Source of the DNA: Candidatus Micrarchaeum sp.
GTDB lineage: Archaea > SpSt-1190 > DYHY01
Direction of reading: 5' to 3'
DNA length: 64,000 nucleotides
NCBI GenBank assembly: GCA_020723935.1
Contig: DYHY01000002.1
Coordinates: 31,465-95,464 of the forward strand
The translations under genes were made by a program, and so were the position numbers. The notes beneath the pieces were generated by a model. That model did not search any database, had not been told where the DNA came from, and saw nothing but the letters and a program-made list of their open reading frames with translations. The stretch's first letter is position 1. Each line of letters opens with the position of its first letter. Shown here piece after piece: positions 5,847 to 27,149 of this stretch.

Positions 5847-6293
5847 ATGACCAGGAGATTTGTCAGGAGGAAGTGCATCGGGCGCAGGAAGGGCAGCTTC
5901 ATGGACGACTGGGTGATGAAAATAGCCTGGGGCATACTGATCCTGGGAATCCTCTACATGGTGGTCCTCATCCTCACTGCCTGGCTCAACAAGCGCGCCC
6001 CGCAGGACATCAAGCACGCGGGGGACCTCGTGATAAACCCGATGACGGGCCTCGCGCTCGGGATCCCGCCGTGGGGCGGCGCAGGGAAGGGGGGGAAGGG
6101 CAAGCGCAAGGCCAAGGCCGCGGCGGGGGGCGCCCGCAGGAAGGGCGACGCGGAGCTCTCCGTCCCGTTCTGGATAATCTTCTCCTTCGTCGTGATGCTC
6201 GTCGTCCTGATAGCCCTGAGGTACCTCAGCACCTACCTCACGAAGGTGCCCGCCCTCATAGGGAGCAAGGCGGCGGGGGGGCGGCTGATATGA
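5847..6293 (+). CDS. Pilin-like membrane protein with class III-like signal
   Basis: Basic N-terminus RRKG, then SFMDD, then hydrophobic helix. A second TM helix lies near the C-terminus. Lys/Gly-rich linker. Confidence 0.5.
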   Translation: MTRRFVRRKCIGRRKGSFMDDWVMKIAWGILILGILYMVVLILTAWLNKRAPQDIKHAGDLVINPMTGLALGIPPWGGAGKGGKGKRKAKAAAGGARRKGDAELSVPFWIIFSFVVMLVVLIALRYLSTYLTKVPALIGSKAAGGRLI

Positions 6294-6460
6294 GCCGCAG
6301 GGCCCAGGAGGGCGCGAGGCAGATGCTCGTCTTCGTCGTCGTCCTGATACTCGCGTTCATCATCCTGTGGATCTTCGCGTCCAGGAGGACGGACCCCGAC
6401 AAGATGGCGGCCGTCAGGGACGCGCTGCTCCCGATAATAGACAAGCTCAAGGGAGGATGA
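6290..6460 (+). CDS. Small pilin-like protein
   Basis: ATGA overlap with the upstream stop. MSRRAQEG, then ARQ, then MLVFVVVLILAFIILWIF. 56 aa. Confidence 0.5.
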   Translation: MSRRAQEGARQMLVFVVVLILAFIILWIFASRRTDPDKMAAVRDALLPIIDKLKGG

Positions 6461-6627
6461 TGCTAACAATGGCGATGGAAACGGATGTCGGATCGGGAAG
6501 GAAGGGTCAGGCGACGGAGATGCCGGGGCAGGTCGTGTTCTGGATACTGGCGCTGATAGGCCTCGTGATCCTCGTGATCATAGTGATGCGTGGCGGGACG
6601 CTCTTCAGGAACCTGTTCGGCACGTAG
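6457..6627 (+). CDS. Small pilin-like protein
   Basis: ATGATG overlapping the upstream TGA. GRKG, then QATEMPGQ, then VVFWILALIGLVILVIIV. Confidence 0.5.
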   Translation: MMLTMAMETDVGSGRKGQATEMPGQVVFWILALIGLVILVIIVMRGGTLFRNLFGT

Positions 6628-6660
6628 CGGGGGAAGGAAAAGGGCGAGAAGAAGGGAAAC

Positions 6661-7236
6661 ATGGCAGAAGGCGACAGGAAGACAATAATCGAGACGCTCT
6701 TCGCGATACTGGGCGCCCTCCTCCTAATCGGCGTCATCGTCCTCCTCTTCTTCACCTACGTCCTCCCGCAGCTCCAGACCTACGCGGGGCCCAAGCGCGA
6801 GGCTCCGGAGCTGGAGGCGGCGCTCCAGAGCCTCTGCTTCTACCACCAGGCCTCGACCGGCCAGTCCCAGGTCGTCATCGGCGGGGGGACGAACATCGCG
6901 ACCTTCACCGACGACTACGAGCTCACGCCCCTCGCGATCGCGCAGAACATGTCAAGGTGCTTCTCCGACGTCCCGCGGGGATGCAAGGTGCAGGGCGCGG
7001 GCGGGACGTGCTCGGAGAGGTACGAATGGGAGGGCGCGGCGACGATAGACTACAGGAGCACCTGCCCATTCAACCACGAGGAGCCGGGGCTTTTCGGGCA
7101 CATCGTCTGCAGCGGCGGCTGCCCTAACTTCACAAGGGGGACATCATACCGGCTCCAGGTCGCATCGACCCTCGCGAGCCCCACGGTCTCCCTCCCCGAC
7201 TTCTGCCTCTTCTACGCCGAGGAGGTGAGGCCCTGA
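6661..7236 (+). CDS. Pilin-like protein with Cys-rich extracellular domain
   Basis: MAEGDRK, then TIIE, then TM helix, followed by a 150-aa domain with 8 Cys. Confidence 0.55.
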   Translation: MAEGDRKTIIETLFAILGALLLIGVIVLLFFTYVLPQLQTYAGPKREAPELEAALQSLCFYHQASTGQSQVVIGGGTNIATFTDDYELTPLAIAQNMSRCFSDVPRGCKVQGAGGTCSERYEWEGAATIDYRSTCPFNHEEPGLFGHIVCSGGCPNFTRGTSYRLQVASTLASPTVSLPDFCLFYAEEVRP

Positions 7237-7935
7237 ATGGCGGGAAGGACGGGCCGGAGGCGCGCTAGGCGCGCGGCGGACACCCTGGCGGTCCTCGTCT
7301 TCCTGATAGTCGCGCTCCTGGCAATCCTCGTCATATTCATGTGGGTCCTCCCCTACCTGCAGGACCAGTGGAAGACGGCGGAGTCCTCGATCACGTCCTG
7401 CGGCTGCATAGGGAACAGGACCAACATAATCGTGCGCGGCGTCGCGGACACCGTCTTCAAGAAGCAGCCCAACCCCTTCTCCTCGGCGGAGGTGGAGCTG
7501 TGCAACTGCAGGAACGAGAAGATGGAGCTGGGGCGCCGCCTGACTGTGGACGCGGTCGTGAACTTCCCCTGCTCCATATCCAAGGGCAAGAACGGCCACC
7601 AGGAGATAAACGGCCTCGCCATACCCAAATCGCTGTGGGGGATAACCCTCGACCGGGCGCAGGGCGTGAGCTTCGAGTTCAACGATATGGAGGTCTACGT
7701 GGACTGGCCCTACAACACCTATTTCATGCTCAAGGACAGGCCCGCCTTCGACGTGATAGTGCAGAGGATACCTGACTTCCGGGTTCCGCACTTCGACTTC
7801 GACTTCGGGAGCACGGACAGGGGCCTCGCGTATTTCAAGCTCAAGATCGACGGCCAAGACGAGACGAACGACACGACAATCCTCACATCCGTATCCGAGG
7901 ACAACTCGGTGTGCTTCGGGGAGGCGCCGCCATGA
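7237..7935 (+). CDS. Pilin-like secreted/anchored protein
   Basis: Start abuts the previous stop. RRRARRA, then ADT, then LAVLVFLIVALLAILVIF, then a Cys-containing domain. Confidence 0.55.
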   Translation: MAGRTGRRRARRAADTLAVLVFLIVALLAILVIFMWVLPYLQDQWKTAESSITSCGCIGNRTNIIVRGVADTVFKKQPNPFSSAEVELCNCRNEKMELGRRLTVDAVVNFPCSISKGKNGHQEINGLAIPKSLWGITLDRAQGVSFEFNDMEVYVDWPYNTYFMLKDRPAFDVIVQRIPDFRVPHFDFDFGSTDRGLAYFKLKIDGQDETNDTTILTSVSEDNSVCFGEAPP

Positions 7936-8129
7936 CGGGGAAGACGGGGGCGGGGCGGGCCGCAGGCTCTCATCGGAGGGCCGAGATGGACAAGGACATA
8001 CTGATGGGGGTCATCGCGATGATAGTCATCGCCGCGATAGTGGTCCTGATATTCGTCTTCGCGAGGAACCAGATAATACACGCGTTCGAGGAGATGAAGA
8101 ACCGCCTCTCGTTCACGATAAAATTCTAG
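7932..8129 (+). CDS. Small pilin-like protein
   Basis: ATGA overlap. HRRA, then EMDKD, then ILMGVIAMIVIAAIVVLIFVF. Confidence 0.5.
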   Translation: MTGKTGAGRAAGSHRRAEMDKDILMGVIAMIVIAAIVVLIFVFARNQIIHAFEEMKNRLSFTIKF

Positions 8130-8172
8130 GCCCCGCGCGGGGAAGGAAGAAAGGAGAGAAAGGGAAAAGGAA

Positions 8173-8721
8173 ATGGCGCAAAGGAAGGCTGCGGAGAGCA
8201 GCACAATCATGCTCGTCGTAGCGATAATAGTCGGGCTCGCGGTGGCCCTAATACTCCTCAAGGGCGGATCCTTCGTGAGCCAGGGGCAGGGGACGATCAC
8301 GGGCATCGGGCAGAACATCCTCTCCAGGAACAAGGGCGCCTTCGGGCAGGCCTGTAGGGAATGGAAGGGTGCAAGCGAGGGCCAGCAGAGGGACCCGGGC
8401 TTCATCCTGGGCGCGGCGCCCAACCCCGCATCCATCCCGGGGGCCGCGGGCGCGTACGGGAACAAGTTCAGCTGCTGCAGGGGGAGGTTCGAGGAGGCCG
8501 CCAAATATTTCAGATCCAAGCAGGGCGCGTTCAGCCCGCAGCCCGACCTGACGATCGAGCCCTACGCAAAGTATGTCGACGAATGGAACCTCTGGAGCAT
8601 GTGCTATTCGGCGTGCCTGGGCTTCTCGGACGTCTACGACCTGTGCGCGCAGACCTTCCAGGGCGGGGAAGGGGACAGGGATTTCATAAACTGCCTGGAG
8701 AACAGTTCGACCGGCTGCTAG
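8173..8721 (+). CDS. Cys-rich pilin-like protein, paralog A
   Basis: MAQRKA, then AESS, then TIMLVVAIIVGLAVALILL. The C-terminal domain has 8 conserved Cys. About 60% identical to the ORF at 8789. Confidence 0.65.
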   Translation: MAQRKAAESSTIMLVVAIIVGLAVALILLKGGSFVSQGQGTITGIGQNILSRNKGAFGQACREWKGASEGQQRDPGFILGAAPNPASIPGAAGAYGNKFSCCRGRFEEAAKYFRSKQGAFSPQPDLTIEPYAKYVDEWNLWSMCYSACLGFSDVYDLCAQTFQGGEGDRDFINCLENSSTGC

Positions 8722-8751
8722 GCGGAGCGCAGGGAGAAAAACCGGAGAATA

Positions 8752-8763
8752 GGTATATTAATA
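8752..8763 (+). promoter_or_regulatory. Archaeal TATA-box-like element upstream of the 8789 gene
   Basis: ggtatattaata lies about 30 nt upstream of the ATG at 8789, which fits archaeal BRE/TATA spacing. Confidence 0.4.
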
Positions 8764-8788
8764 GGAAAGGGGGTGGAAGCGAGGGAAG

Positions 8789-9355
8789 ATGGCAAGGAAA
8801 GCCGTGGAAAACAGCGCGATAATGCTCGTCGTAGCGATAATAATAGCGCTCATCATAACCATGATCCTCCTCAAGGGCGGCACCTTCGTCAACGAGAAGC
8901 AGGGCACCCTAATAGGGATAGGCCAGAGCTTCTTCTCCGGGAACAAGGGGGCATTCGGGCAGGCATGCAAGGAATGGCAGAGGGCCAGCGAGAGCCAGCA
9001 GCGGGACCCCGGCTTCATCCTGGGCGACCCGCCCAATCCCGCATCCATCCCCGGCGCCGCGGGCGCCTACGGCAACAGGTTCGCCTGTTGCAGGGGGCAT
9101 TTCGAGTCGACAGCCCGCGATTTCAAGAGCAAGGGGGTCAACTTCAACCCGCAGCCGGACGCCGCGGTCAAGCCCTACGACACACACCCCAACCAGTGGA
9201 ACCTCTGGAAGGCGTGCTACGACAGTTGCGGCGGCTTCATCAACGTCTACGACGCCTGCGCCCAGGAGCATCCCGGAGGGGAAGGGGACAAGGATTTCAT
9301 ACAATGCCTGGACGAGCGGACCGTGAACTCGGGCTGCACGGACGGGCCTTTGTGA
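8789..9355 (+). CDS. Cys-rich pilin-like protein, paralog B
   Basis: MARKA, then VENS, then AIMLVVAIIIALIITMILL. Shares the motifs GNKGAFGQAC, DPGFILG, NPASIPGAAGAYGN and CCRG with 8173. Confidence 0.65.
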   Translation: MARKAVENSAIMLVVAIIIALIITMILLKGGTFVNEKQGTLIGIGQSFFSGNKGAFGQACKEWQRASESQQRDPGFILGDPPNPASIPGAAGAYGNRFACCRGHFESTARDFKSKGVNFNPQPDAAVKPYDTHPNQWNLWKACYDSCGGFINVYDACAQEHPGGEGDKDFIQCLDERTVNSGCTDGPL

Positions 9356-9389
9356 TGCGGCAAGAAGGGGGAGGAACTGCGTAAGAAGG

Positions 9390-10682
9390 ATGGAAACGAC
9401 GGGGGCGCGGCCGGGGAGGAGAAGGCGCGGCTTTGAGCCAGTCATTGCCCTCGTCGTCGGGATAATCGTCGTCCTCGCCATAGTCTGGCTCATCGCATCG
9501 GGCGTGATCTACAAGGTCGTCCCGAACCTCAAGGCCCCGGGCAGCGTGTTCCTGGAAATGAGGAAGGACTATCTCGTCGGCTCGTGCAAGGGGTGGGTCG
9601 ACAGCCTCGGCCTCGCGGCGAGCCTCCCCGAAGACCTCGCGGCCGCGATAAAGGTGAACAACCTCCACTGGGAATCCTTCTGCTCCAAGGAGGCGATAAA
9701 GGACCCGCAGAACAAGTGCAGGTGCCTCAAGGCCTGCGTGAAGAGCCTGGATGCGGAGGAGGCATGCGCCGCCAACCCCAACGCGTACCATCCGGGCCTC
9801 TGGACGCCGGGCGCGGACGGGAAGACCGGGAACATCTCCTCGCTCATGGGGAGCTTCGACAACGTCGAGGCCAGGATGGCACCGACATACTGCTTCCTCA
9901 ACTTCCTCAAGAGCCTCTCGACGGTGAGCCCCAGCTGCGCGTCCGAGAGCTCCGGCGGGTACCTGGTGATGGCGGGATTCACGGTGGCGTACAAAACCCC
10001 GAAATCGGCGGGGCAGATAGCCACCTACACGGACTCCGGCGGCGCCGTGGACGTCCCCGAGATACGCGAGCTCACCGCGTCCTGCACCGTCCAGTGCAGG
10101 AACCCGGAGGGCTGTGACAACGTCGTCCTCTCCCTGATGTACAAGTGCAACAAGTTCAACGGGCGCGGCGCGCCGTGGCTGGGCGACGGGGGCCACTGCT
10201 GCGACAGGATAGCCTACAGCTACCTGGGCGACGGGAACTGCTTCGCGGGCAGGAACTGCGGCACCGACCCGTTCTACCAGGGGCCTGTCTGGGACGTCTA
10301 TTCCGTGCCCGGCTGGAGGAAGGCCTACGAGACGATGCGCACAAGCACCCCTGCGGTCGCGCTCCCACACATAAACAGTGGCAAATCCTACACCCAGGAT
10401 TTCACGCTCTACACCCCGCAATGGGACGTGGTGACGCCCTTCTACGCGAACGGCATAAACGACCTGGAGGAGAACAACGTGATGTGCGCCGCGTCCTACG
10501 CGGGCGACAGGCTCAATTCCGTCGCGCAGACGGTCCTCGTCGGGAGCGTCAGGGTCAATTCAGGCATCCAGCCGGACGGGACGGAGAGGAAGCTCATGTG
10601 CCTCCCCGGGACGAGCGACTGCCAGGACATCTTCTCCAGGTACTACGACCTGGACGCCGAAAGGCAGGTGGCCTGCTCATGA
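9390..10682 (+). CDS. Large pilin-like protein with Cys-rich extracellular domain
   Basis: RRRRG, then FEPV, then IALVVGIIVVLAIVWLIA. This G-F-E-P arrangement resembles a prepilin cleavage site. 430 aa with more than 25 Cys. Confidence 0.65.
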   Translation: METTGARPGRRRRGFEPVIALVVGIIVVLAIVWLIASGVIYKVVPNLKAPGSVFLEMRKDYLVGSCKGWVDSLGLAASLPEDLAAAIKVNNLHWESFCSKEAIKDPQNKCRCLKACVKSLDAEEACAANPNAYHPGLWTPGADGKTGNISSLMGSFDNVEARMAPTYCFLNFLKSLSTVSPSCASESSGGYLVMAGFTVAYKTPKSAGQIATYTDSGGAVDVPEIRELTASCTVQCRNPEGCDNVVLSLMYKCNKFNGRGAPWLGDGGHCCDRIAYSYLGDGNCFAGRNCGTDPFYQGPVWDVYSVPGWRKAYETMRTSTPAVALPHINSGKSYTQDFTLYTPQWDVVTPFYANGINDLEENNVMCAASYAGDRLNSVAQTVLVGSVRVNSGIQPDGTERKLMCLPGTSDCQDIFSRYYDLDAERQVACS

Positions 10683-11131
10683 CGAGGCGGGGCGCCGTAG
10701 AGGTCACGCTCTCGGCGGTCGCCGCCGTCGTGATAGCGATAATAGTGATAGCGATCGTCTTCTACAACGTGTTCCCCGAGATAAAGATGGCTGTGAACTC
10801 CGGGAAGGACATCAAGGGGAGCCAGTACTTCGACATCCAGCAGGAGATAAAGCTCTGCCAGGCCTGGCACCAGGTGGATTTCATGGACACGATAAAGTTC
10901 GGCGTGGACGCCGGATTCGCCAACCTCAAGCTCAACAACCCCGGCTTCCAGAACCCGATATGCCTCAACCAGGCCCTCGACTACGAGAACTGTACGAAGA
11001 AGTGCGTCTCGATGACAGAAATAGGGGACGCGTGCGCCAAGCACACCGACAAGTGCTACCAGATAGACGCGGCGTTCGACGCGCGCTGCGAGCTTGAGGG
11101 ATGTGTGGCGCTAGGGGGCCTCATGCCATGA
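10679..11131 (+). CDS. Pilin-like protein with Cys-rich domain
   Basis: Internal ATG at residue 179 of ORF 10145..11131, overlapping the upstream TGA as ATGA. MTRRG, then AVEVT, then LSAVAAVVIAIIVIAIVF. Confidence 0.55.
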   Translation: MTRRGAVEVTLSAVAAVVIAIIVIAIVFYNVFPEIKMAVNSGKDIKGSQYFDIQQEIKLCQAWHQVDFMDTIKFGVDAGFANLKLNNPGFQNPICLNQALDYENCTKKCVSMTEIGDACAKHTDKCYQIDAAFDARCELEGCVALGGLMP

Positions 11132-11760
11132 GCGCCATGCGGGCCGCGGCTCGCCGGCGGGGGCGCATCGGGGACTTTGACATAATGATGCTCGTCGTCG
11201 CGGTGGTCGTCGGCCTCATGATACTCGTCATCGGGATACAGGTCGCCAAGATCACGAGGAAGGGCGGCGAGAGCGTCGGGAGCGACTACCAGGTCAAGGA
11301 GGGCGTCGCGTACAGCCAGCTCAAGCTCAAGTGCGGCCTCTGGCGCGACTCCATCGAGACGTGCGCGAGCGGCGCCTGCACCGCCGACTGCCCCAACTGC
11401 CTCGAGACGTTCGCAAGCGACACGCTGAAGGTCTATTCCGTCCCCTATTACGTGAGGAACTCGAAGCTGGCGAACAGCAGCTACTACGACCCCGCGAACA
11501 GCCTCCAGACGCAGAAATGCGACTCGGCCGTCGACACGTGGGCGACGAACCCCGGCGGGGAGGCCGCCCAGGCGACGATGGAGATATCCGATTTCATAAG
11601 GACCCACGGCGACGAGGCGGTGCAGATCGCCGAGGCATGCTCCTACGTCTGCCGCTGGGTGATAGAGAGGGACGAGGAGTGCAGGACAGGGGCGAGGAAC
11701 TGCGGGGATCTCGTCGTCATGAACGGCCAGCCGATGCCCTACTATCTCTACCTTCCATGA
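11128..11760 (+). CDS. Pilin-like protein with Cys-rich domain
   Basis: ATGA overlap. RRRG, then RIGDFD, then IMMLVVAVVVGLMILVIGI. 10 Cys in the C-terminal domain. Confidence 0.55.
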   Translation: MSAMRAAARRRGRIGDFDIMMLVVAVVVGLMILVIGIQVAKITRKGGESVGSDYQVKEGVAYSQLKLKCGLWRDSIETCASGACTADCPNCLETFASDTLKVYSVPYYVRNSKLANSSYYDPANSLQTQKCDSAVDTWATNPGGEAAQATMEISDFIRTHGDEAVQIAEACSYVCRWVIERDEECRTGARNCGDLVVMNGQPMPYYLYLP

Positions 11761-11770
11761 GGGGCACAGC

Positions 11771-12331
11771 ATGGTAGGCCACGCGAGAGCGATGCGGAAC
11801 CGCGCGAGGGTGGCGATCGGGCGGCGGGGCTCGATGGACCAGACGATCTGGATTGTCGTCGCGATGATAATAGCTGTCGCCGTCGGAGCGATAATGATGC
11901 GGATGATAGACAAGTCGCGCCAGGTGGAATCCCTCTCCGGCGAGGACAGGTTCTCCCCGGCGGCCGAGACCTTCTGCGCGGAATGGTTCCAGCCGGCGCA
12001 GGAGCCGCGGCCGAGGGAATACGCGCCGTCCCAGGCAGCCCTGGAGAAGTCGACTGACACCTTCCGGGGCATAGGCTGGCTCTCCGCCCAGAAGAATACC
12101 GTCTCCAAGGCCTACATTGAGCCCGGCCCCGTGACAGGCTGCGACTGCACGGTCTTCCTCGCCTCCACCGCCGGCCATTCGAGGCTCGGGGAATCGCCGG
12201 CCGCCGGGCTCCTGCGGTCCGAGTCCGGGAGCGGTTCGTCCTACTCCCCGGAAGCCTGCCATAGGAGGGCTGCCTGCGTCGCCCGCTCCCTCCCCGCCCT
12301 GGCCGTCTTCTTCGAGGAAAGAACCTGCTAG
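11771..12331 (+). CDS. Pilin-like protein. Member of a three-member paralog family with 12401 and 31102.
   Basis: RRG, then SMDQT, then IWIVVAMIIAVAVGAIMM. Shares FCxxW, RKYGWL and TGCDC[TI]VFL[AT]S motifs with 12401..12994 and 31102..32877. Confidence 0.6.
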   Translation: MVGHARAMRNRARVAIGRRGSMDQTIWIVVAMIIAVAVGAIMMRMIDKSRQVESLSGEDRFSPAAETFCAEWFQPAQEPRPREYAPSQAALEKSTDTFRGIGWLSAQKNTVSKAYIEPGPVTGCDCTVFLASTAGHSRLGESPAAGLLRSESGSGSSYSPEACHRRAACVARSLPALAVFFEERTC

Positions 12332-12361
12332 GCGCCATTTAAGCCCTCTCAAAAGGCCAAA

Positions 12362-12375
12362 ACAATAAATAATAC
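12362..12375 (+). promoter_or_regulatory. TATA-box-like element upstream of the 12401 gene
   Basis: acaataaataatac is centred about 30 nt upstream of the ATG. A similar element sits ahead of the degraded paralog at 31102. Confidence 0.4.
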
Positions 12376-12400
12376 AGTAGCATTAACACAAGACAGCACC

Positions 12401-12994
12401 ATGGCCCACGGACGCAAATCAAGCGAACAACCCATCTGGCTTCTAGTCGCGCTACTGCTAGCGGTCGTAGTCGGCATAGCGATGTTCAGCACGATCAACA
12501 GTGGCATGAACAAGTTCGGCACATTCACCCAGGCCACCGGCCAGGAGAGCGACCGGATAGCGATAGAGACTTTCTGCAAGAACTGGATAAGGCCGCAGGA
12601 AGTCGACCTTGCGGGCAACATCAACCCGCGCGCATCCGAGCCCACCGCGCCGGAGCGCGAGAGGGCGACGGACTCGTTCAGGAAGTACGGCTGGCTCCTC
12701 GCGGAGAAGGACTCGAACAAGGTGTATCTGGAGACGGGCCCGCCCAGCGGATGCGACTGCATAGTCTTCCTCACCTCAAGCGTCGGCTCGTCCTCGCTCC
12801 CGCCCACCAGAGCCAAGCAGTTCCTCGTCTCCGAAGCCAGCACCGGCTCAATGTACGACCCGGTAAAGTGCGGATTCAAGGCGTACTGCATCGGGAAGAC
12901 GTCCATACCGGAGCTTGGGGGCGTCGAGCTGTTCGGCGAGGGGAGCCTGAGCGCCACGGCGATGGAAGCCAAGTTCCCGGCGCGCACCTGCTAG
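12401..12994 (+). CDS. Pilin-like protein, paralog of 11771 and 31102
   Basis: MAHGRKSSEQP, then IWLLVALLLAVVVGIAMF. Nucleotide identity to the region 31150–31400 is roughly 85–90% by eye. Confidence 0.6.
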   Translation: MAHGRKSSEQPIWLLVALLLAVVVGIAMFSTINSGMNKFGTFTQATGQESDRIAIETFCKNWIRPQEVDLAGNINPRASEPTAPERERATDSFRKYGWLLAEKDSNKVYLETGPPSGCDCIVFLTSSVGSSSLPPTRAKQFLVSEASTGSMYDPVKCGFKAYCIGKTSIPELGGVELFGEGSLSATAMEAKFPARTC

Positions 12995-13064
12995 GGAAAG
13001 CGCGCCCCGCGGCCGGAAAGCATAAAGACGAAAGGGGGAGCGTGAGCCGCGGAAGGCGGGGAAG

Positions 13065-13664
13065 ATGGCGCGAAAATATGGTTGCCGGCGGCGCAGGAGG
13101 GGCCAGGTCACAGACACGCTCCTCATGGTCGCCTTCTTCGCGCTCACGATGTTCCTCCTCGCCCGCTGGGCGCTCTACTACGCGAACGTCTCGGACAAGG
13201 CGAGGACGATAATAACGATGAACAACATCAAGGACGCGATCGAGCAGGTCTGCACGAACAAGCGCGTCCAGATATCGGTGAAGGTCGTCCTCCCGCAGGA
13301 TTCGGCGCTCCTCCCCTTCTCCTGCGACCAGGTCCAGGCGCTCTCGACAATAGGCCCGATAGGGGGCGTAACCAAGGACGTCTCGCACGTCGGGGGCTTG
13401 GAGGCTGTCATTGACGACTGCCAGAGGAAGGGCGAATCCAAGAAGAACGCTGCCCTCCTCTACATCTGGAAGAAGGACGCCCAGAAGATCCTCTGGGTGA
13501 TACAAACCTCCCCGGAGGAGCTCAACGTCGAGGCGGTAACAACGTACTGCGTCCTGAGGGACTATAGCGGGGAGGCGTTCCTGGGCGGAAGGAAGCAGAG
13601 CGCGGAGGTCGGGCTCACGCAGGCGGGCGTCGTCTACACGAGGCCCGTCTCCCTGGAGGCATGA
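13065..13664 (+). CDS. Pilin-like membrane-anchored protein
   Basis: RRRRRG, then QVTDT, then LLMVAFFALTMFLLA. Confidence 0.55.
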   Translation: MARKYGCRRRRRGQVTDTLLMVAFFALTMFLLARWALYYANVSDKARTIITMNNIKDAIEQVCTNKRVQISVKVVLPQDSALLPFSCDQVQALSTIGPIGGVTKDVSHVGGLEAVIDDCQRKGESKKNAALLYIWKKDAQKILWVIQTSPEELNVEAVTTYCVLRDYSGEAFLGGRKQSAEVGLTQAGVVYTRPVSLEA

Positions 13665-15316
13665 AAAGGGGGATGGCTGGGAGGAAGGGCGACTGGGGCG
13701 GATACTACATAATCCTCGCGATAATGTTCGTCGTCATCGGCGGCTGGATAATAAACATGGCCGTCAATTCCATGAACACCTGTAAGATGGACGTCCCGGA
13801 GAGGACGACGCGCATCAAGGAAATAGTGGAGAAGGTGTGCCTCGATCCCCTTCCCGGGACGAGCGAGACGTTCGTCGGGAGCTCCTGCCCCTCGCGCTAC
13901 GAGGTGACGGCGGCCTCCTGCAGCGACCTTACGTGGCGCATGGCATTCAGGGATCTTCGCACGGGGTTCTTCGGCAAGCCCTTCGGCCTCACCTGGTTCT
14001 CCCCCCGGACCGGGAGCCCCCCGTCCAACCCCTCGCCCCATTTCACAACTAGCCTCACCAACGAGCAGGTCATGAACGAGATACTTGACAGGGCGCGCGA
14101 GCTGGACGACCCCGACAGCATACTCGTCCAGACCGCAAGGGTCGTCCCGCACGGCCACCACCTCCCCGGCACGATCGTCTCCCCGTTCACAAACACATAC
14201 GTCCCCGAAGTCATAACGAACGAGCACCTCGCGAAGATCCCCGTGAGCCTGGACAAGACGATCGTCATCTCCGACATGGACGAGGACGACTTCACGGGCG
14301 GGATGCTCGCGGCCGTCGCCTCCGCCGAGGAGATGAACTTCATATGGAAGAACGACATAAGCCGCAAGCTCGTCGGCGTCTATACGCTCATCGGGATGCA
14401 GATATACGGCAGCGTCACCTTCGGCCCGAAGAACTCCCCGGCGGCATCCTACGTGATAGCGACCGCCCCCCAGTTGACCCTGAGGCGCGACCGGGCCCAG
14501 CACCTCGCCTCCGCCTATTTCGACTACGTGGGGAAGTACGGGACGGCTTCTGCCAAGGCGATAGCGGGCGGGGCGAACGCGACCGTCTGGAACTCGGCCG
14601 ATCCATGGCAGAGTCTGGTCGACGCGAGCAACAGGATCTCCTCGGTCCCGTGCAACGAGCCCGGCGACTTTTGCCCGATGCAGAGCTACGCGAACGACCT
14701 CCTCGCCGGGATAAACGACGCCCTCGTCAGGATGCGGGGCCTCTACTCCTCGATCGCTGCCGGCAGGGCGGACACGATCGCCCTCCTGCAGGCGAGGATC
14801 GATTCCGGGGCCTGCGGCTCAATCGCCAGCGGCTCGGAGAGGTTCCCGACGTGCGCGGCGATGATATCGTGCAACTGGATAGACAGGACTCTCACCGAGC
14901 GCCTCCAGAAGAACGGCTGCCTCATGAGCGCGGTCAACGTCAACGGGAACCTGGAGGCGCTGCCCCTCGGCGTCATGGAGCGCGAGGCGGCCCTCGAGGT
15001 CTGGGACATAAACCTCCCGGAGAGCACGGCGTCCAAGATCTCCGGGGAGTACAGCTACCGCCCGGCGATACACTGCCCGTCGATAATCCCCGGAAGCCAC
15101 CTCCCCGCGTGGGGCCACGAGGCGGAGAAGGTCGTCGCGGTGTGCATGCACGACAAGAACCCGGAATGCTCCAAGGACGACACCTGCTACTACTGCTACA
15201 CAATCCAGTGCGCCAACAAGGTGAGCGTGGAGACTGAGCCCGCGACGGCGATAACCGTGAAGAACGTCGAGGGGAGCGGGACGGAGCTGCGCGGCGCAAT
15301 ATACCGGATAAAGTGA
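13661..15316 (+). CDS. Large pilin-like or membrane-anchored extracellular protein
   Basis: ATGA overlap. MKRGMAGRKG, then DWGG, then YYIILAIMFVVIGGWII. 551 aa with Cys pairs. Confidence 0.55.
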   Translation: MKRGMAGRKGDWGGYYIILAIMFVVIGGWIINMAVNSMNTCKMDVPERTTRIKEIVEKVCLDPLPGTSETFVGSSCPSRYEVTAASCSDLTWRMAFRDLRTGFFGKPFGLTWFSPRTGSPPSNPSPHFTTSLTNEQVMNEILDRARELDDPDSILVQTARVVPHGHHLPGTIVSPFTNTYVPEVITNEHLAKIPVSLDKTIVISDMDEDDFTGGMLAAVASAEEMNFIWKNDISRKLVGVYTLIGMQIYGSVTFGPKNSPAASYVIATAPQLTLRRDRAQHLASAYFDYVGKYGTASAKAIAGGANATVWNSADPWQSLVDASNRISSVPCNEPGDFCPMQSYANDLLAGINDALVRMRGLYSSIAAGRADTIALLQARIDSGACGSIASGSERFPTCAAMISCNWIDRTLTERLQKNGCLMSAVNVNGNLEALPLGVMEREAALEVWDINLPESTASKISGEYSYRPAIHCPSIIPGSHLPAWGHEAEKVVAVCMHDKNPECSKDDTCYYCYTIQCANKVSVETEPATAITVKNVEGSGTELRGAIYRIK

Positions 15317-15388: not shown

Positions 15389-16546
15389 ATGGCCGAGGGA
15401 CCCAGCTCGTCTACAAGCATCGGGACGATACTGGGCCTCGTCATCGAGGTCATCGTCCTCATCGTCGTGATGGGGATGGTCGCATCCGAGGTCACGTACC
15501 TCGCGACGATGGCCCACCTCCAGGAGGCCAAGATCCTCGCGAGCACGATAGCCGGCATGATAACCGCCGTCTCCGCGGCGCCGCAGGCCGGCCTCTACTG
15601 CGTCTCCATCCCCGCGACCCTGGGCTACGACGTCGCGATCGGGAGCGCGAAGCTGGACAACGTCGGGAGCGCCCTGGAGCTTCGCGACGTACCAGACCTC
15701 TCCCCCTGGTGCCCCGTGAGCGCCCTGCCCTACGCGGATGCGGAGGGCGTCCCCTACATCCAGGAGTTCAAGGCCGCCGCCGACAAGTACGACGTCCCGG
15801 TCGCCGCCCTCCTCGCCGTCGGGCAGCTGGAGAGCGGCCTGCAGCACTACGAACCCGACGGCATGACGGTGAAGGTGAGCCCCACCGGGGCGGTCGGGAT
15901 AATGCAGATTCTGGACGGCCCGACGGAATTGGCGGCGAACATAGACAGGGGCGCGAAGGAGTTCCGCTCGAAGATGGACTATTTCGACGGCGACGTCCAG
16001 GCCGCCTTCGCGGCGTACAGCGGCGGGAACGCGGGGGCCGCCGAGCAGATAGACCTGGCCGGGCGCGAGATCTGGATAGAGAGCATTCTGGCCTTCTCGA
16101 GCCTGCGCACACACCTCTACAACGACGTGAAGACGTACGGTAGCTGCAGCTGCATGTCCGCCGACGAGTACCTGGCCGGCACGATGCCCCCGTTCCCGGG
16201 CGGCCTCACCTACACGGCCGAGCGCCAGAACGCGTGCGAGGTCAAGAGGGGGACCGAATACGCGCGCGGCTTCGAGGCCCTCGGCCTGGGCTCGGTGAAA
16301 TACGGTTTCGTCGCGGCGATAAAGAAGGAGGGGCGCTCTGGAGGCGTCTCCTACATGCCGGTCTCAAACATCGACAGCCAGGTCATACGCGTGCCCGTCG
16401 GGCAGAAGTACACTCTCCTTGCTAAGAAGGCACTCGTCCCGCGGCTGAGCGGCGGGTATGAGGAGAAAATAGTGCTACGCCTGAGGAAAGGAGGCCTCGC
16501 GCAGGCAGGATGCAACGTCGACACCCCGTCGATATGCATCTACTGA
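15389..16546 (+). CDS. Membrane-anchored SLT-domain protein (lytic transglycosylase, lysozyme-like family)
   Basis: N-terminal TM helix. The canonical SLT motifs are present: LLAVGQLESGL (the catalytic ES), GAVGIMQI, and AAYSGGNAG (the AY-N-G motif). Confidence 0.75.
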   Translation: MAEGPSSSTSIGTILGLVIEVIVLIVVMGMVASEVTYLATMAHLQEAKILASTIAGMITAVSAAPQAGLYCVSIPATLGYDVAIGSAKLDNVGSALELRDVPDLSPWCPVSALPYADAEGVPYIQEFKAAADKYDVPVAALLAVGQLESGLQHYEPDGMTVKVSPTGAVGIMQILDGPTELAANIDRGAKEFRSKMDYFDGDVQAAFAAYSGGNAGAAEQIDLAGREIWIESILAFSSLRTHLYNDVKTYGSCSCMSADEYLAGTMPPFPGGLTYTAERQNACEVKRGTEYARGFEALGLGSVKYGFVAAIKKEGRSGGVSYMPVSNIDSQVIRVPVGQKYTLLAKKALVPRLSGGYEEKIVLRLRKGGLAQAGCNVDTPSICIY

Positions 16547-16548
16547 AG

Positions 16549-17826
16549 ATGGCGGCCGAAACCAGGAGGAAGGGAGCCGCGGGCGGAAGGAGGCGGGGCC
16601 AGTCGCTCTCCAGCGTCGTGATCCTGCTCCTCACCCTCACAATCCTCGTCGTCGTCATAGTCACATCCATCGTCGCGAACGCGGAGTTCAACGCCATGTT
16701 CGGCAACCACCTGAAATCGCGCGAGGCGCTCCTGATCGCCTCCAAGATAACGGGCGCCCCGCAAATAGCCCTGGACATGGGACGCGAGGGCCTGCACAAG
16801 AACATGCTAGACACCCGCCGCCTCGACACCCTGAACAGGACGCACCGCGCCAAGATGCCGGCGAGCGCCTACGTCTTCTGCTACAACTGGCGCGCCGAGA
16901 TCTACGACACGGACCTGAAGAAATATTGGGAGTTCGGCGCGAGGAACCCTGCGAGGGACGCGATGTACGAGCTGTGCCTGGCGTACGGATGGGGCATGGG
17001 CGGGGCGGCCTACGGCGGGCAGTTCGAGGACCCCAGCTGCCTCGCGATCGCGCAGGGCGCCGACAGCAGCGACGTCGGCGAGGACTATTTCGTAATCCCG
17101 GTGACACTTGTCAACTACGCAGGCAACAAGCTCAAGAACTACACCTTCGGCGCGATGAGGGTGGCCGTCTGGGCGAACTCCAGCCAGTGCATCGGGGAGA
17201 ACGACAGGGAGAAGCAGTACAACGAGGCCGTGCGCCTCATCGAGAGCGCCCCCCTGTTCGTGCCCACGAGCTCCCAGGCTGAGCTGCCCTACCAGCCCAA
17301 GAGCATCGCCGTCCCGGGCGGGGCGACGTACTCGACGATGAGGTGTGAGGAGCTCCTGATAGAGAGGATACGGATGCATTTCGACGAGGTGCGCGCCGAG
17401 AACATGAAGGCCAGGGCGCCGGCCTACACCGACCGGATCGAGGAGGCGGCGAGGGCTGCCGACGTTGACGCGAACCTCCTGCGGGCAGTAGTCGCCGGTA
17501 GGAGCGGCTTCTCCCCGGAATATCCCAACGGGGGCTTCACGGGCCTGCCGGCGTCGGTCTATCCCACCCCGCCGATGGACGTGAGCGAGAACCTTGCGGC
17601 CGCGGCAACCCTCCTTCGCCAGTACCTTGACCAGGCTTCCACGCAGTACAACGGCGGGCACTGCTCGCTCAACTATGCGATCTACGCCTATCTCACGAGC
17701 GGGGAGGTCCTCTCGCAGTACGTCGCCGGGACACTCAAGCCCTCCGGCCCGGTAGAGGCAGTCTCCCAGGACATAATCTCGCTTTTCGACAAGTTCAACT
17801 CGTGCTCGGAGTCGATAGCTACATGA
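16549..17826 (+). CDS. Pilin-like membrane-anchored protein with a degenerate SLT-like segment
   Basis: ATG is 3 nt after the upstream TGA. RRRG, then QSLSS, then VVILLLTLTILVVVIVTSIV. The C-terminal stretch LLRAVVAGRSGFSPEYPNGGFTGL resembles an SLT fold but lacks the Glu. Confidence 0.5.
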   Translation: MAAETRRKGAAGGRRRGQSLSSVVILLLTLTILVVVIVTSIVANAEFNAMFGNHLKSREALLIASKITGAPQIALDMGREGLHKNMLDTRRLDTLNRTHRAKMPASAYVFCYNWRAEIYDTDLKKYWEFGARNPARDAMYELCLAYGWGMGGAAYGGQFEDPSCLAIAQGADSSDVGEDYFVIPVTLVNYAGNKLKNYTFGAMRVAVWANSSQCIGENDREKQYNEAVRLIESAPLFVPTSSQAELPYQPKSIAVPGGATYSTMRCEELLIERIRMHFDEVRAENMKARAPAYTDRIEEAARAADVDANLLRAVVAGRSGFSPEYPNGGFTGLPASVYPTPPMDVSENLAAAATLLRQYLDQASTQYNGGHCSLNYAIYAYLTSGEVLSQYVAGTLKPSGPVEAVSQDIISLFDKFNSCSESIAT

Positions 17827-18563
17827 CGGGCGAGGAAGCCGGAAGGCGGAGCGGCGGGCGCAGGGCGCAGGGCGCCGAGACGATAGTCGTGCTCATCTTC
17901 ATCGTCGCGATGTTCTTCGCGCTCATCGTCGCTTTGGCGTTCCTCAAATTCAAGGTGAACTTCGCGATAACGGAGGTGAGTGCGCAGGAGGACCAGCTCC
18001 CGACGATGCAGGCGCTCTCCTACTCCACCGTCGGGCGGCTCATAAGGACGCCCGTGCTCTTCTACAACCTCGCTAGCATCGCATCCGTCACGGGCCAGGA
18101 CGTCTTCATCTTCTCGGCTGAGAGCGGCTCGGTGAGCATCCAAGACATACTGAACCAGAAGCTCGAGACGTATTCCGCGGGGCAGCTAGCGCTCTTCTAC
18201 CCCAAGTGCTTCGAATACAACCTGAACGACGAGATGCGCGGACCCCTCTGGACCAAGTTCCTCGCCGCGGGCACGATCCAGGCCGACAGCTGCCAGGAGT
18301 ACGGGGCGAGCCAGGCGGACAAGGGCCAGGAGACGTTTGCCAAGAAGAACTACATCTACTTCTTCCCGCTCCCGCCCCTCTCCGACGGGACGGCGCGCCT
18401 GAGCGAGCAGTTCATCAGGGTCTTCGCCCTGCGCGACAAGCCCAGGATCATGGCCCCCTCCGGAGGGGTGGAGCGGCCCGACTGCAACGCCAACGGCGCG
18501 GCCGCGTCCCTCCCCGAGGACTGCTGCTCTGGAAGGATGGCTGGCGGAGTCTGCATGCCCTGA
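17823..18563 (+). CDS. Pilin-like protein. Last gene of the locus.
   Basis: ATGA overlap. GRRAQG, then AET, then IVVLIFIVAMFFALIVALAFL. C-terminal CC..C motif. Confidence 0.55.
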   Translation: MTGEEAGRRSGGRRAQGAETIVVLIFIVAMFFALIVALAFLKFKVNFAITEVSAQEDQLPTMQALSYSTVGRLIRTPVLFYNLASIASVTGQDVFIFSAESGSVSIQDILNQKLETYSAGQLALFYPKCFEYNLNDEMRGPLWTKFLAAGTIQADSCQEYGASQADKGQETFAKKNYIYFFPLPPLSDGTARLSEQFIRVFALRDKPRIMAPSGGVERPDCNANGAAASLPEDCCSGRMAGGVCMP

Positions 18564-20016: not shown

Positions 20017-23000
20017 TTGGATTCCGACCGCAAGCCCGGGGATGCCCGGCTGGAGCAGGCCGCGCGCACGAGGCATGCCGCAGCCCGGGCCGGAAGCGCG
20101 GGCCGCAGGGGCGTAGGCCCGGCGGTCATAATCATCGGCGGAATCATCGTCGTCGCGATCGCCATCGCCCTGTTCTTCCTCTGGCTCCAGTCGCTCGCGA
20201 CGATTGACTTGCAGGCGGACATCGAGGCTTCCGAGAACAAGTACGTGACCGCGATACATGTCATGGAGGAGGCGCGCATCTACATAAAGACCGCGACGGA
20301 ATACGCGCTGCAGCTAGCAGTCCTGGACGTCTCTAGGCACGGCGGATACATCGAAAGTCCCAAGACAGGATCCAACGGGCTCCCGTACCTGGGCTGGATA
20401 AACCCCGACTGGACGGCCTTCGCGCCGTGGCTCGGGCGCGACGTCTACAGCGAGCACGGTTTCCCGCTCAGGTGCCCGGAGAGCGACAGCGATTACGCGT
20501 TCGTCATCACCCCGCCGCAGGTGAGCGACCCCAACGCCCGGCCCCTTGTCGACAAAATACTGCGCGAGATAAACTACTCCGTCCCGCCGATGCTTGAGCA
20601 GTACGTGCAGATCCTCGAGAGCAACTCGTCGCAGTACAAGCTCAACATCACAGTCTGGGACCACAACGCCGGGAGCTGGTATTTCAACAAATTCTGCCTG
20701 GACTTGGGCGGCCCGGCCCTCCCGAACGACCCGGCCCTCTGGAGCAACATTGAGAGTTCGGGGGTCGCGTGGGTGAAGGCGGGCTTCGCCTGGGGGGACA
20801 TCCAGTCCGCGCAGGGCGGGGAATACGACTGGACCCGTGTTGACGCGCTCTACACGGAAGCCGAGAAAAGGAACATAGAGGTGATCCCGATATTCGGCTG
20901 GCCGCCGCAATGGGCGAGGACCGAGGCCGGCGTGAACGACGTCTGCATCGGCGGCGGGGCGGGCGGCTGCAGCAACAGGCCCGACTACGACAAGTACGAC
21001 GACTACGCGGCGTTCATCTCGTCCTTCATGAGCCACGTGAAGGGGCGGGGCTGGCAGATCAACTACGTGATACCTTGGGTCCCGGGGATAAACAAGGCCG
21101 ACAAGTGGTCCGCCGTCGGGATCGACACGGCGGAGTTCGCGCGCTTCTTCAAGATAGTCTCGCTCAAGATCAGGGCGACCGAGCCGTCCGTGAAAGTCAT
21201 ACTCCCGGCGCTCACCGAATACGCGGAAGTGTGCGGCTACGACGGGTACCCCCTCGACCCCAAGCCATGGAGCCTCTTCCAGACCGGAGGGGGGTGCGGC
21301 GCGTACGCGTGCCCGGCCGGGAAGAGCTGCGGCGGGGTGAAGTACATAGCCGGCTGCGCGAGCCCTTACGACACCGAGAGCCAGGCGGAATGCTTCGCGA
21401 TAAACGCGGTCGACTGCACGCGCTCCGAGGCGATCCACACCGCCGGCCCCGACGGCAACCTGACATGCCAGCACTACGACTACTGGCACCCCTACATGTA
21501 CGACCTGTCCGTGCGCCCGCCCGACACCAGGCGCGTCGTCTACACCGCGATGACGCAGTCGGCGTTCCTCAACGACCTCTACATCAACGGAATAAATGAC
21601 TATTTCGACGCGATGGAGGTCTGGGGGAGGGGCGCGAGCACCGACGAGCAGCTCCAGCGCGCGGACCTCTACAAAGGGAAGCTCGAGAGATACAAGGACA
21701 CTGAGAAGAAGATATGGTTCGAGCCCATAGTGAGCGACGTGTCCCTTGAGCCGGCGCCCACCGCCCAGTTCATCGCCGAAATCTATTCCAGGGTCCAGCA
21801 GTCGCCCCAGTACGACTATCTGGGGCCTGTCTGCCTCGGCGGATGGGGCCCGGGCACGATATCGGGCCTCGCCGCGCTCAAGAAGCCAATCTACTTCGCC
21901 CCGTGGGGCGAGACCAACCTCACGACGGTGCACGAGACGCGCGTCTACACGACCCCGCCGTCGGTCGTCTCAAGCAAGCAGTTCACGGGCTTCGGGATGA
22001 CGAAATCCGTCGACAACACGACCGCGGCCCTGGGCTTCTCGATACAGGAGATACTCAACGAGGCGAGGATGATAGCCAAGAACCCGTCGCGCGCGGTGAT
22101 GTCCGGCGGCGTATCGTGCTCCTCCAAGAACGGCTTCTGCCCGGCGGCGTGGTGGAAGCGCGGCGACGCGAAATCCTGTCAGATAGGGAACTACGTCTGC
22201 CCGACGGACGCGGGGGACGGCGAGATAACCTGCAGCGCGAACGAGGTCGTCCCCTACAAAATGACATGCACCGCGGTCGCGGCCCTCTACGAATACACCT
22301 GCGTCGTCGATTCCGACGACTATCCGGGGCCGGGGGTCCCCTACGTCAACGCCAACTCCTGCAATGAGGGCGTGACATGGGTGACCGGGCAGGACGCCGC
22401 CGGCGGGGCGACCCTCGGGAGCAAGGGCGTGTGCGTCGCGCTCAAGGACGCGAAAGACAACGAGATCAAGTGCAGCCAGATAAACAAGGACAGCCACCGC
22501 CTCGGGATAAAGAACCCGTTCATATTCTGCAGGAACGTCGACGACCAGTGCTGCAGCTGGTCCGACACCCCCTACGAGTACGAGAAGGACCTGAGCATCG
22601 CCAAGCAGAGCACCGGATGCTATTGCCAGGCGCTTAACCCCAGGAGCGGCAGCCCCGGGGACCCTGGGGACAGCAGCGTCAACGACGGGCCCGCGGGAAA
22701 ATTCTTCTGCACTGGAGGCATACCCAGCTACAAGTGCGACTCGTGGTTCGGGGCGGACGGATGGGTGGCGAACGACCTGGGCACGGTGGACTTCGGAACG
22801 GACTATCCGGACGCCTACATGTCCGGCTGCAGGAACGAGGGAAGGAACCACGGCGGCGTTCCTTGGGTCGAAATATGCACGAAAAATCCAAAACCCTGCT
22901 ACGACAGCGCATACGATGGGCAGTCCCCGCCGCCGGAGATATCTTTGACAGGCCCGGACTGGGGCGCGTTCCACTCTGAAAGCAAGCCTCCTGAATGCGC

Positions 23001-26000
23001 GGCCGCCGGTGCCGACTGCGAGCTGGGTCCGGAAGAACCGCAAGGTTGTGGCGGAGACTTCTTTTCAGACGGGGCCGGCCACTGCTGCAAGATGGTCGGC
23101 ACTCCTCCACAGCCAGATTGCAGCAGGGACGAGCCCACGAAGCGCTTCTGGTGGTGCGAGGCCAAGGACACGGATCCGAGCGCCCAACCGCCCGAAGAGA
23201 AGCACGTCCCGTGCGGCGACGAGGGGTCCGGCGTCCCGGGGCTTTGCACGCGCCAGAGGCCCGGAGACAAGAAGATCTACAATCCCCTGCCCTGCCCCGG
23301 GCCCAACGGATGCTTCGGAGCGCTCCGGGGCGCGCCCTACCAAATACCCAACTACAAGGAAGGCTGGAAGGGCGACGCGCCGGCGAGCGAGATAGACGGC
23401 GGCCGGGTGTGGGGCAACGTCCCCGAGGAAGGGGAGAGCGTCGCATTCCACCTGCAGAGCGCAGCGGGGGGGAGCCTTAACAAGTGCGCGGATTCCGTAG
23501 AGGATCCCGCGTACCCGTATCCGGACAACGCCATGGAATGCTGGGACGCGAGGCCCGTCCCGACGCTCAACAAGATCCATGACCCGGAGCAGAAGCGAAA
23601 CGATGTGCGCCTCTCGCGCCTCGACTGCGAGGTGACGGTGACCAACGCCCGCTGGGCCCTCCTCTCGCTCACGCAGGGCGAGCTCACATCGGCCGACGCG
23701 TTCAAGAGCTTCCCCGACGAGTTCAAGTTCAACCTGGAGCTCCAGTACCGCGACAAGGACTGCCTAAGAGGCATAGCCGCGGAGGGCGACCCGCCGAGGC
23801 CCAAGTCAACGAAGTTCGAGGAGGGGCAGGCATTCGAGCACGACTGCACGTTCTACCGCCTGCCCAACACAGAATGGGCCAAGGACCCGGTGCCGGGCGA
23901 CCCGTGGCCCCCCGACACCGAGCCGATACAGCGCCTTGAGCACAAAAACCTGCCCGTGCCCCCGGGCTACAAGACGCTGGACATACAGGGCGCGAGGAAC
24001 TCAATACCGGGCTGCTGCGGCTACGAGAAGAACAACACCGAGTTCAAGGCGACGATAAACTTCGGCTACGACATAACCCCGCCCGGGCCGGTGAACGGCC
24101 TGAACAACCCGGGGGCGGGGAGCGCCGCGGACCTCACCCCCGTGCCGGCGATCGGGGGCTGCGGCTCGATAAAGCCCTCGTTCACGAGCTCCTCGCAGAT
24201 ACCGAACCTGGCGCTCTTCCAGCAGGTCTCGCAGGAGACAGGGGTCCCTGTCATCTACCTCCTCGCGAGGGGCTGGGACGAGTCGGGCCTCAACCACTTT
24301 TCCACGGACGGGGTCACGGTCAAGGGCTGCACGAGCGGCACGAGCGGATGCCACGGGTACATCGGCATAATGGCGGTCTCCGCATCGATCCCGGGCGTGA
24401 CCGACATCCTCACCAACATCCGCGAGGGGGCGAGGAAGCTGAAGGCGGACATCGACAGGGTCGGGAGCTTCCAGGGCGCGGTCATGATGTATTCGGGCGG
24501 CCCGACGGGGGGCTGCCAGCACATAACGACGCTCCTGGGCGGGACGGTCGGGGGCTTCTACGAATACGACCTCTCCAAATGCAAGAAGCCACCCGCAGAC
24601 TGGGTCCCGCAGCTGTCCACGATAACGAGCAGGACATTCAGGGACCCCAAGGTCCTGATCTACAACCAAGGGAGCCCGTCCCTGGACGATCGGCAGATAT
24701 CGCTCTACGGCTATTCGATCGAATGGCAGAACGCCTGCGCGCTCTTCAGGGATTACGAGGCGGTGCAGGTGATAGCCCCTCTATTGGGCGGAGGCAGCTC
24801 TGCGACGACAACCACGACTGCCGGGCCCAGCCCTCCGGCGGGGGGCTTTGAGCTCGGCGGCCAGGTGGCGGGCGGCCTCTCCGACAACGCCCTCGCCAAG
24901 ATGAAGTGCTCAGGCATGACGTGGGTGAAACAGCAGATAAGGTGGGTCCCCGGCGCGAACCCCCAGGATCCGAAGGGCCTGATAGACGACATCCACGGCA
25001 AGGGGCTGAAAGTCCTCCTCAGCATAACGGGCGACAACGGGAATCCGGCCGCCTTCCCCACGCCCGCGCAGTTCGACAGCTACGCCTCCTACGTGGCGGG
25101 GGTCGCGACGCTCGGGCCCGACGCGATAGAGGTCTGGAACGAGCCGAACCTTGACAGGGAGTGGCCCAACGGCCAAGTGAACGGTGGGAATTACGTCAAT
25201 CTCCTCAAGAAAGCGTACCCGGCGATCAAAGCCGCGAACCCGCAGGTCCTGGTGATTTCGGCGGCGCTCGCGGAGACCGGGGCCGCCGGGAGCGCCGGAT
25301 GCACGGCGGCCTACTGCAACTACGACACGTTCCTCGGGCAGATGGCTTCGGCCGGGGCGGACGCCTACCTCGACTGCGTCGGAGCCCACTACAACAGCGG
25401 CGTCGTCAGGCCTACGTCCTCGAGCGGCGACCCGCGCGCGCAGGATCCCAAGTACAGCTACTTCTCTTCCGTCAAGGACACTTACAAGGCGGCGTTCCCC
25501 GGCAAGCCCGTGTGCTTCACGGAAATAGGCTACTTCTCCAGCGACGGGTTCTCGGGGGCGCCGGCGGGGATCAACTTCGACCACAACCTCGCAGACCACG
25601 CGGCATTCGACGGCGAGATACCGACGGCCTCCAAGCAGGATTCGTTGGTGAAGCTCGCCATAATATGGAACGTGGACTTCACGTTCTACGACCCGGCGGG
25701 CGACCCGCAGGCGGGCTGGGCGATAATACGCCCCGACGGGAGCTGCCCCGCGTGCGCGGCGATGGGCGCGGCGATGGGGGCGCCCGGCGCATCCAGCTGC
25801 GCCTCCGCCGGCGGCGGGATCAACGGGGACGAGGAATGCGCGAACGGCAGCCCCTATCCCGGCGAGGGGGGGATGGGCGGGGGAGGCGGCGGGGGCGGAG
25901 GGCCCTACCCGCCCGGAGGGATCGGGGCGGGAGACTACTGCAACCCAGTCCCCACTTCGACGAGCTTCGGCAACCTGTTCTGCGCGTGGAACGGGCACAA

Positions 26001-26504: not shown

Positions 26505-27149
26505 ATGAACGAATGGCGCAACACGGGATACGGGGGAAGGTCGCTCCTGCTTGCCGCGGCGGCCCTGCTCCTGATCGCCGTCCTCGCAGCCCCGGCGGCG
26601 GCCCTCCCTGAGTACTGGCGAGCCGAGCCGCCGGCCAACGGGAGCATCACGCTCAAGCTCGTCTACGTCGTCGTAGCCGCGAACTCAACGCCCGCCGGGA
26701 GGATAAAGCAAGTGGATGTGAGGAACGTGACGATGCCCTTCTCGCTCAACCTCGGAACGTCGGAAGGCGGCGGCGGCCCGTTCGTCCTGCGGGAGGTCTG
26801 GGGGGACGGCTATTCCGCCGAGGCGCGGTTCGGGATAGACGAAAAAAATCCGGCGACGCAGGATGTCTGGCTGATCTTCAACCCGCCCGAGAGCACCGAC
26901 GGCAAGACGCTCACGCTGGTCCTCGAGAACTCGGGGGCGGAACTGGACAGGATGGCGGTGCCCTACTGCGGGGACGGGACGTGCATGAAGGGCGAGAGCG
27001 TCGTCTCGTGCGTGCCGGACTGCGGCAGGTTCCTGCGCCTCTCCCGCCAGCAGGCGTCCAAGGCGGTCCAGTTCCTCGCCGGCGGGATCCTCCTCGCGCT
27101 CCTCGCCCTTTCAGTGTTCTTCGTCGCGAAGCGGATGGACGAGCCGTAG
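26505..27149 (+). CDS. Secreted protein with C-terminal TM anchor
   Basis: Internal ATG of ORF 26460. Signal peptide LLLAAAALLLIAVLAAPAAA. C-terminal helix ILLALLALSVFFVAKR. Immediately follows the giant hydrolase. Confidence 0.55.
   Translation: MNEWRNTGYGGRSLLLAAAALLLIAVLAAPAAALPEYWRAEPPANGSITLKLVYVVVAANSTPAGRIKQVDVRNVTMPFSLNLGTSEGGGGPFVLREVWGDGYSAEARFGIDEKNPATQDVWLIFNPPESTDGKTLTLVLENSGAELDRMAVPYCGDGTCMKGESVVSCVPDCGRFLRLSRQQASKAVQFLAGGILLALLALSVFFVAKRMDEP

Follow-up and report, generated by a model that had tools for sequence, protein, structure and literature searches.

The locus described here lies in a 64,000-nucleotide stretch of contig DYHY01000002.1 from Candidatus Micrarchaeum sp. 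(hereafter, the window), and the contig was confirmed to be archaeal. In the collection scanned, its EF-1alpha reaches at most 67% identity to any species representative, with matches spread over Thermoplasmata, Aenigmatarchaeota, Altiarchaeota, Woesearchaeota and Micrarchaeota. All the genes discussed are on the forward strand, and the three that are our main concern, which we denote gene 1, gene 2 and the giant protein gene, lie at the 3' (distal) end of a 26-kb co-directional array in which an ATPase and a polytopic membrane protein come first. The ATPase (10..2310) is of the type IV filament assembly kind, TadA/FlaI-like, as indicated by its match to Pfam T2SSE (60.2 bits) and to the NCBIfam TadA and FlaI models (132 and 122 bits, respectively, both under the equivalog cut-offs). 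The 689-aa membrane protein (3558..5627) matches T2SSF weakly but along the full length of the profile (14.8 bits, E 0.029, under the cut-off), its ortholog in a related archaeon, 51% identical, stands at the head of the collinear locus L083, and it is probably a TadC/FlaJ-type platform. These are followed by a row of 12 co-directional pilin-like genes (5847..15316), including two tandem paralog pairs and small tandem proteins at 8173-8721 and 8789-9355, that are separated by gaps of -31 to 367 nt and are collinear with L083 and with a second locus, L001. According to N-terminal analysis, each protein of this row begins with a short leader, which is basic in most of them, followed by a single strong hydrophobic helix (Kyte-Doolittle 2.1-3.5). 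The strict class III motif is present in 4 of the 12 genes and in 5 of the 17 analysed up to position 27149, all of which, consecutively, encode pilin-like N-termini; the window ORFs that were scanned include no recognisable prepilin peptidase. The archaeal pilus operon postulated in the original prediction is thus borne out as a type-IV-filament-like array on an archaeal contig, and gene 1 shares its strand and its place in the collinear array with the filament ATPase and the weakly matched platform.

Gene 1 (15389..16546) is a real ORF; its product, a pilin-like protein of 385 aa, carries an SLT module (GH23, family-1 lytic transglycosylase, LT) as an insertion. The SLT/GH23 assignment is genuine, and both the catalytic glutamate and a lysozyme-like fold are present: residues 127-222 match Pfam SLT (PF01464) with 31.3 bits (E 1.7e-7), against the curated gathering threshold of 21.3 bits, and the ortholog in the related locus L085 scores 39.2 bits. 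The triad ES, G-x-MQ-I and AY-x-x-G-N that had been read from the sequence is found where it was placed, and it includes all three motifs of family 1, namely, the catalytic Glu-Ser, G-L/I-M-Q and A-Y-N/S-x-G. Motif I is LESGL (from residue 147, nt 15827-15841), with E148-S149 and a GAG codon (15830..15832) for the predicted catalytic Glu148; motif II is GIMQI (from residue 170, nt 15896-15910), comprising G170-I-M-Q173; and motif III is AAYSGGN (from residue 208, nt 16010-16030), comprising A209-Y210-S-G-G. In a profile search of the PDB, Glu148 falls into one column with the ES of two LTs, MltC (IESSF) and one from a phage tape-measure protein (YTESRF). The similarity to known structures is distant: the whole protein has no match in the PDB at E <= 1 by phmmer, and the gene 1 profile finds there weak LT matches only, none below E 0.03. 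Matches to apolipoprotein A-IV in the same search are regarded as amphipathic-helix artefacts. The motif lies in a lysozyme-like alpha-helical fold, and the alternative named in advance, a pseudomurein-endoisopeptidase fold, was rejected by the fold check. Taken at face value, these features suggest that gene 1 encodes a lytic transglycosylase, that is, a predicted murein-cutting enzyme, which would split the MurNAc-GlcNAc bond non-hydrolytically and yield 1,6-anhydroMurNAc.

The architecture of the gene 1 protein is more complicated than that of an SLT domain behind a membrane helix. The helix itself is there, and it is strongly hydrophobic (best 19-aa window from residue 14, Kyte-Doolittle 2.94); rather than being a plain anchor, it belongs to a pilin-like scaffold of ~175 aa, inside which a ~210-aa segment with the SLT domain is inserted. 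The N-terminal part of the scaffold (residues 1-95, 15389..15673) consists of the leader MAEG, the hydrophobic helix, a long alpha-helix and two beta-strands, and contains Cys71; the inserted module (residues 96-305, 15674..16303) contains Cys108, the SLT domain (about 115-235), a helical linker and Cys283; and the C-terminal part of the scaffold (residues 306-385, 16304..16546) contains five predicted beta-strands (303-367 in the AlphaFold2 model), Cys375 and Cys383. We consider this to be an insertion because small homologs (P0010, P0012, P0013 and P0155) align to both ends of gene 1, their C-terminal halves with its C-terminal part, and lack the middle; because one of these stand-alone scaffolds, P0155, holds the orthologous position of gene 1 in L083; and because the AlphaFold2 model, built from an alignment of 6 sequences, runs in the order helix 8-63, 2 strands, helical module, 5 strands. 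In this model, the SLT module sits between scaffold strands 2 and 3 and is flanked by putative disulfides. The Cys-flanked SLT module recurs in the giant protein as well as in P0008 and P0014. Its GC3 in gene 1 (0.92-0.94) matches that of the housekeeping genes EF-1alpha and EF-2, so that recent horizontal transfer of the module was rejected. Among viral proteins and PDB entries, the best matches are to proteins of phages, namely, tail lysins, LTs of the tape-measure type and gp16; a provirus or viral origin is unsupported, given that a scan of viral contigs returned no matches and that the synteny is chromosomal. A scan of genome contigs for the gene 1 family likewise returned no matches.

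The leader of gene 1, MAEG/PSSS, contains no basic residue or n-region and fails a FlaFind-like class III cleavage pattern. Its homologs carry the leaders KGA/A, RRRAQ/A, MRRRGQ/G and MRGQ/L, the stand-alone scaffold proteins beginning with MRRRGQ or MRGQ. The gene 1 product might be processed, incorporated into a pilus and polymerised, and it can be described as an archaeal modular pilin-like protein whose pilin-embedded SLT architecture appears to be new. Bacterial modular pilins include PilB and PilC of S. sanguinis as well as GspK, whose pilin beta-sheet accommodates an inserted domain (Raynaud et al. 2021, PMC8179133). The gene 1 module resembles that of GspK in that it, too, lies within the beta-sheet rather than being appended to it; gene 1 differs from all these proteins in being archaeal, in carrying a muralytic module and in lacking a recognisable class III cleavage site, and the supplementary architecture tables examined from that survey contain no SLT or lysozyme-like module. 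Compared with the family-1 LTs (Slt70, Slt, LtgA, MltC, MltE), which reside in the periplasm, are anchored as lipoproteins or are joined to a superhelical domain, gene 1 is very divergent, archaeal, and holds its SLT domain in a pilin-like scaffold with conserved flanking cysteines. The modular pilin principle would thereby come to include archaea, and a payload that is enzymatic and degrades cell walls.

Gene 2 (16549..17826) encodes a 425-aa protein with a class-III-signal-like N-terminus (RRRGQ/S; FlaFind-like RGQS) and a C-terminal degenerate SLT domain, and it has syntenic orthologs in L001, L002 and L085. The ATG at 16549 is the more likely start, in preference to 16510, because the NCBI product is 425 aa long. 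The SLT-like stretch (residues 281-369, 17389..17655) falls under the Pfam SLT threshold (13.1 bits, < 21.3; E 0.07), and the direct comparison of genes 1 and 2, by BLASTP (E 0.62) or by hhalign, where they align weakly but in register (E 0.066), is not significant by either method. A custom profile of 149 SLT domains, from which gene 2 was left out, scores the same stretch at 25-28.5 bits versus a maximum of 3.5 in 500 shuffles and, when the window is scanned in six frames, retrieves gene 2 with E 2.4e-8 and only three ORFs altogether. A match of the gene 2 profile to a designer PPR protein (four 8-bit repeats) was rejected as a helical-repeat artefact. In the alignment, the column of the catalytic glutamate is occupied by Arg318 (AGRSGFSP, nt 17494-17517; codon 17500-17502), and GGFTGL takes the place of G-x-MQ in motif II. 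Homology to SLT is supported by the custom profile, with gene 2 a degenerate relative rather than a functional member of the family and probably non-catalytic, much as had been suspected of a neighbor lacking the glutamate.

Downstream of gene 2 are gene 3 (17802..18563), whose 253-aa product carries a hydrophobic helix at its N-terminus and which has orthologs in L085 (34% identity) and L083, and the gene for a giant pilin-like protein of 2152 aa (20017..26475), the TTG start of which at 20017 agrees with the 2152-aa protein P0009. The giant protein combines an SLT paralog, an intact M23 peptidase and two weak clan GH-A matches. Its SLT copy (nt 24094-24561) is 31% identical to gene 1 (BLASTP, E 1e-14) and has the motifs WDESGL, GIMAV and MMYSGG, so that Glu-Ser is kept and GIMQ is replaced by GIMAV, as it is in P0003. 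The M23 domain (residues about 1960-2152; 59.2 bits with Pfam M23) retains both of its motifs, HxxxD (HNGLD, 25996-26010) and HxH (HLHLE, 26311-26325), also matches NCBIfam peptidoglycan endopeptidase models, and looks like an active endopeptidase. L085 retains the block of gene 1, gene 2, gene 3 and the giant protein gene (29-42% identity), with a giant protein of 2196 aa; the block does not directly follow the pilin row there.

The likeness drawn originally to the SLTs that are dedicated to bacterial machines, such as VirB1 and FlgJ, fares less well. Were it close, gene 1 would be an autolysin that opens the producer's own wall for the filament, as VirB1, BfpH and FlgJ do in bacteria. VirB1-type enzymes open the cell wall of the producer for the passage of the machine; here, the producer is an archaeon, and we know neither of murein in archaea nor of SLT enzymes that cut pseudomurein. 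Furthermore, the collinear locus L083 of the related archaeon contains no SLT in any frame, and for this reason we regard SLT as a payload that is accessory rather than central to the machine, and the analogy to VirB1 and FlgJ as weak: machine-dedicated LTs (VirB1, BfpH, EtgA and FlgJ) are conserved parts of their loci that act on the producer's murein, a pattern that does not hold in this case. Three muralytic modules plus M23 on a 2152-aa protein would also far exceed what is needed for opening a gap, and altogether the autolysin explanation is highly improbable. VirB1, BfpH and EtgA, and likewise the phage virion-associated LTs (tape-measure proteins, internal virion proteins, T7 gp16), resemble gene 1 in that an LT domain is carried by a filament or tube that has to cross peptidoglycan, or is encoded alongside it; functionally, the phage enzymes are the closer analogy in that they act from the outside on a foreign wall, whereas the VirB1-type LTs attack the murein wall of the producer itself, a wall of a kind that archaea are not known to have.

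The explanation that we favor, to which we give an even chance, is that the locus encodes an archaeal modular pilin-like protein, a degenerate paralog and a giant SLT/M23 pilin-like protein, which together would present muralytic enzymes to bacterial peptidoglycan. The filament machinery would extract the products of gene 1, gene 2 and the giant protein gene from the membrane via their pilin-like N-termini and display them at the cell surface or at the tip of a pilus or pseudopilus. When the cell touches a bacterium, SLT would cleave the MurNAc-GlcNAc glycan strands and M23 the peptide cross-links, and gene 2 might act as a glycan-binding or adaptor subunit; the sacculus would then be opened locally, leading to attachment, lysis or uptake of cell contents. 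Murein is the suggested target because the locus adds to gene 1 a third SLT copy and an M23 domain with intact motifs and matches to peptidoglycan endopeptidase models. By the same token, the adjoining giant M23+SLT protein strengthens the original proposal that the apparatus touches murein on another cell. The M23 domain, with its metal-binding and catalytic motifs intact and its matches to murein endopeptidase models, pointing to murein specifically, is also what makes it decidedly unlikely that the SLT-fold modules are adhesins or enzymes for other glycans that bind or cut GlcNAc polymers (chitin, for instance, or glycans on the surface of an archaeal host) for the sake of attachment; the retention of Glu-Ser in 4 of the 5 members of the gene 1 family and in the copy of the giant protein speaks against that possibility, too.

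A different target state, free rather than in situ peptidoglycan, is all that separates the favored explanation from nutrient scavenging, in which pilin-like N-termini would anchor or assemble SLT, M23 and GH-like hydrolases in a bindosome-like structure, and free peptidoglycan fragments and necromass polymers would be digested for uptake, with no attack on cells. The giant protein, by uniting SLT and M23 with two clan GH-A TIM-barrel matches, is reminiscent of a multi-substrate depolymerase, but both GH matches are below threshold. The filament ATPase matches the bindosome ATPase BasE, albeit weakly (65.5 bits), and a precedent is provided by the Sulfolobus bindosome, in which substrate-binding proteins carry class III signal peptides (PMC4858521). 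No transporter or sugar/peptide uptake genes adjoin the block from gene 1 to the giant protein gene, and we consider this explanation unlikely.

Under the favored explanation, the locus suggests that bacterial cell walls are physically attacked, or used as food, by this archaeon. For archaea that would live as physical parasites or predators of bacteria, the SLT proteins of Woesearchaeota and Pacearchaeota are no more than a genomic hint, and all cultivated DPANN-type episymbionts have, to our knowledge, archaeal hosts. It is conceivable, if somewhat unlikely, that the locus encodes a contact-dependent 'drilling' type IV pilus or pseudopilus, the tip or minor subunits of which are active muralytic enzymes (SLT in a pilin; a giant protein with SLT and M23) that perforate living bacteria for predation or episymbiosis; if so, this would be the first molecular apparatus for a direct archaeal attack on bacteria. 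In any case, the apparatus is concrete and testable, with a small, expressible SLT module, the obvious E148Q control and the M23 domain, and related archaea that hold the same locus without muralytic modules (L083, L084) offer a natural comparison with those that have them (the window, L001, L002, L085).

Two components of this scheme have precedents: DPANN archaea are known to have SLT proteins, and archaea to make peptidoglycan hydrolases that are bactericidal. It is the pilin-embedded layout that appears to be new. The giant extracellular SLT proteins of Woesearchaeota and Pacearchaeota (fam00969), of up to about 3000 aa, were proposed to bind or degrade bacterial walls (Castelle et al. 2021, PMC8204110). 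The 2152-aa protein fits the description of this family in its size and its SLT domain, whereas gene 1, with its 385 aa, is a small pilin-like protein of a type-IV-filament locus, a context absent from that report. Archaeal peptidoglycan hydrolases that kill bacteria include 'Woldo', an M23 homolog of zoocin A (Strock et al. 2025, PMC12352652). As is proposed here, these are murein-cleaving domains of archaea, M23 among them, aimed at bacteria; they differ in being secreted proteins with a catalytic and a peptidoglycan-binding domain, and no SLT, pilin-like carriers or filament locus are mentioned. Among the distant SLT matches in our searches are proteins of 2900-4360 aa.

In P0002, the closest ortholog and the member that lost Glu-Ser, the SLT region evolves faster than the scaffold, with 53% identity in the former and 71-73% in the latter. 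Both features of P0002 weigh against the favored explanation, as do the GIMAV motifs of P0003 and the giant protein, the leader of gene 1, the lack of a recognised prepilin peptidase in the window, the position of the block in L085 and the sub-threshold platform match. The loss of the glutamate in P0002, the insertion of SLT in the scaffold and the giant SLT+M23 protein are observations that go beyond the original prediction.

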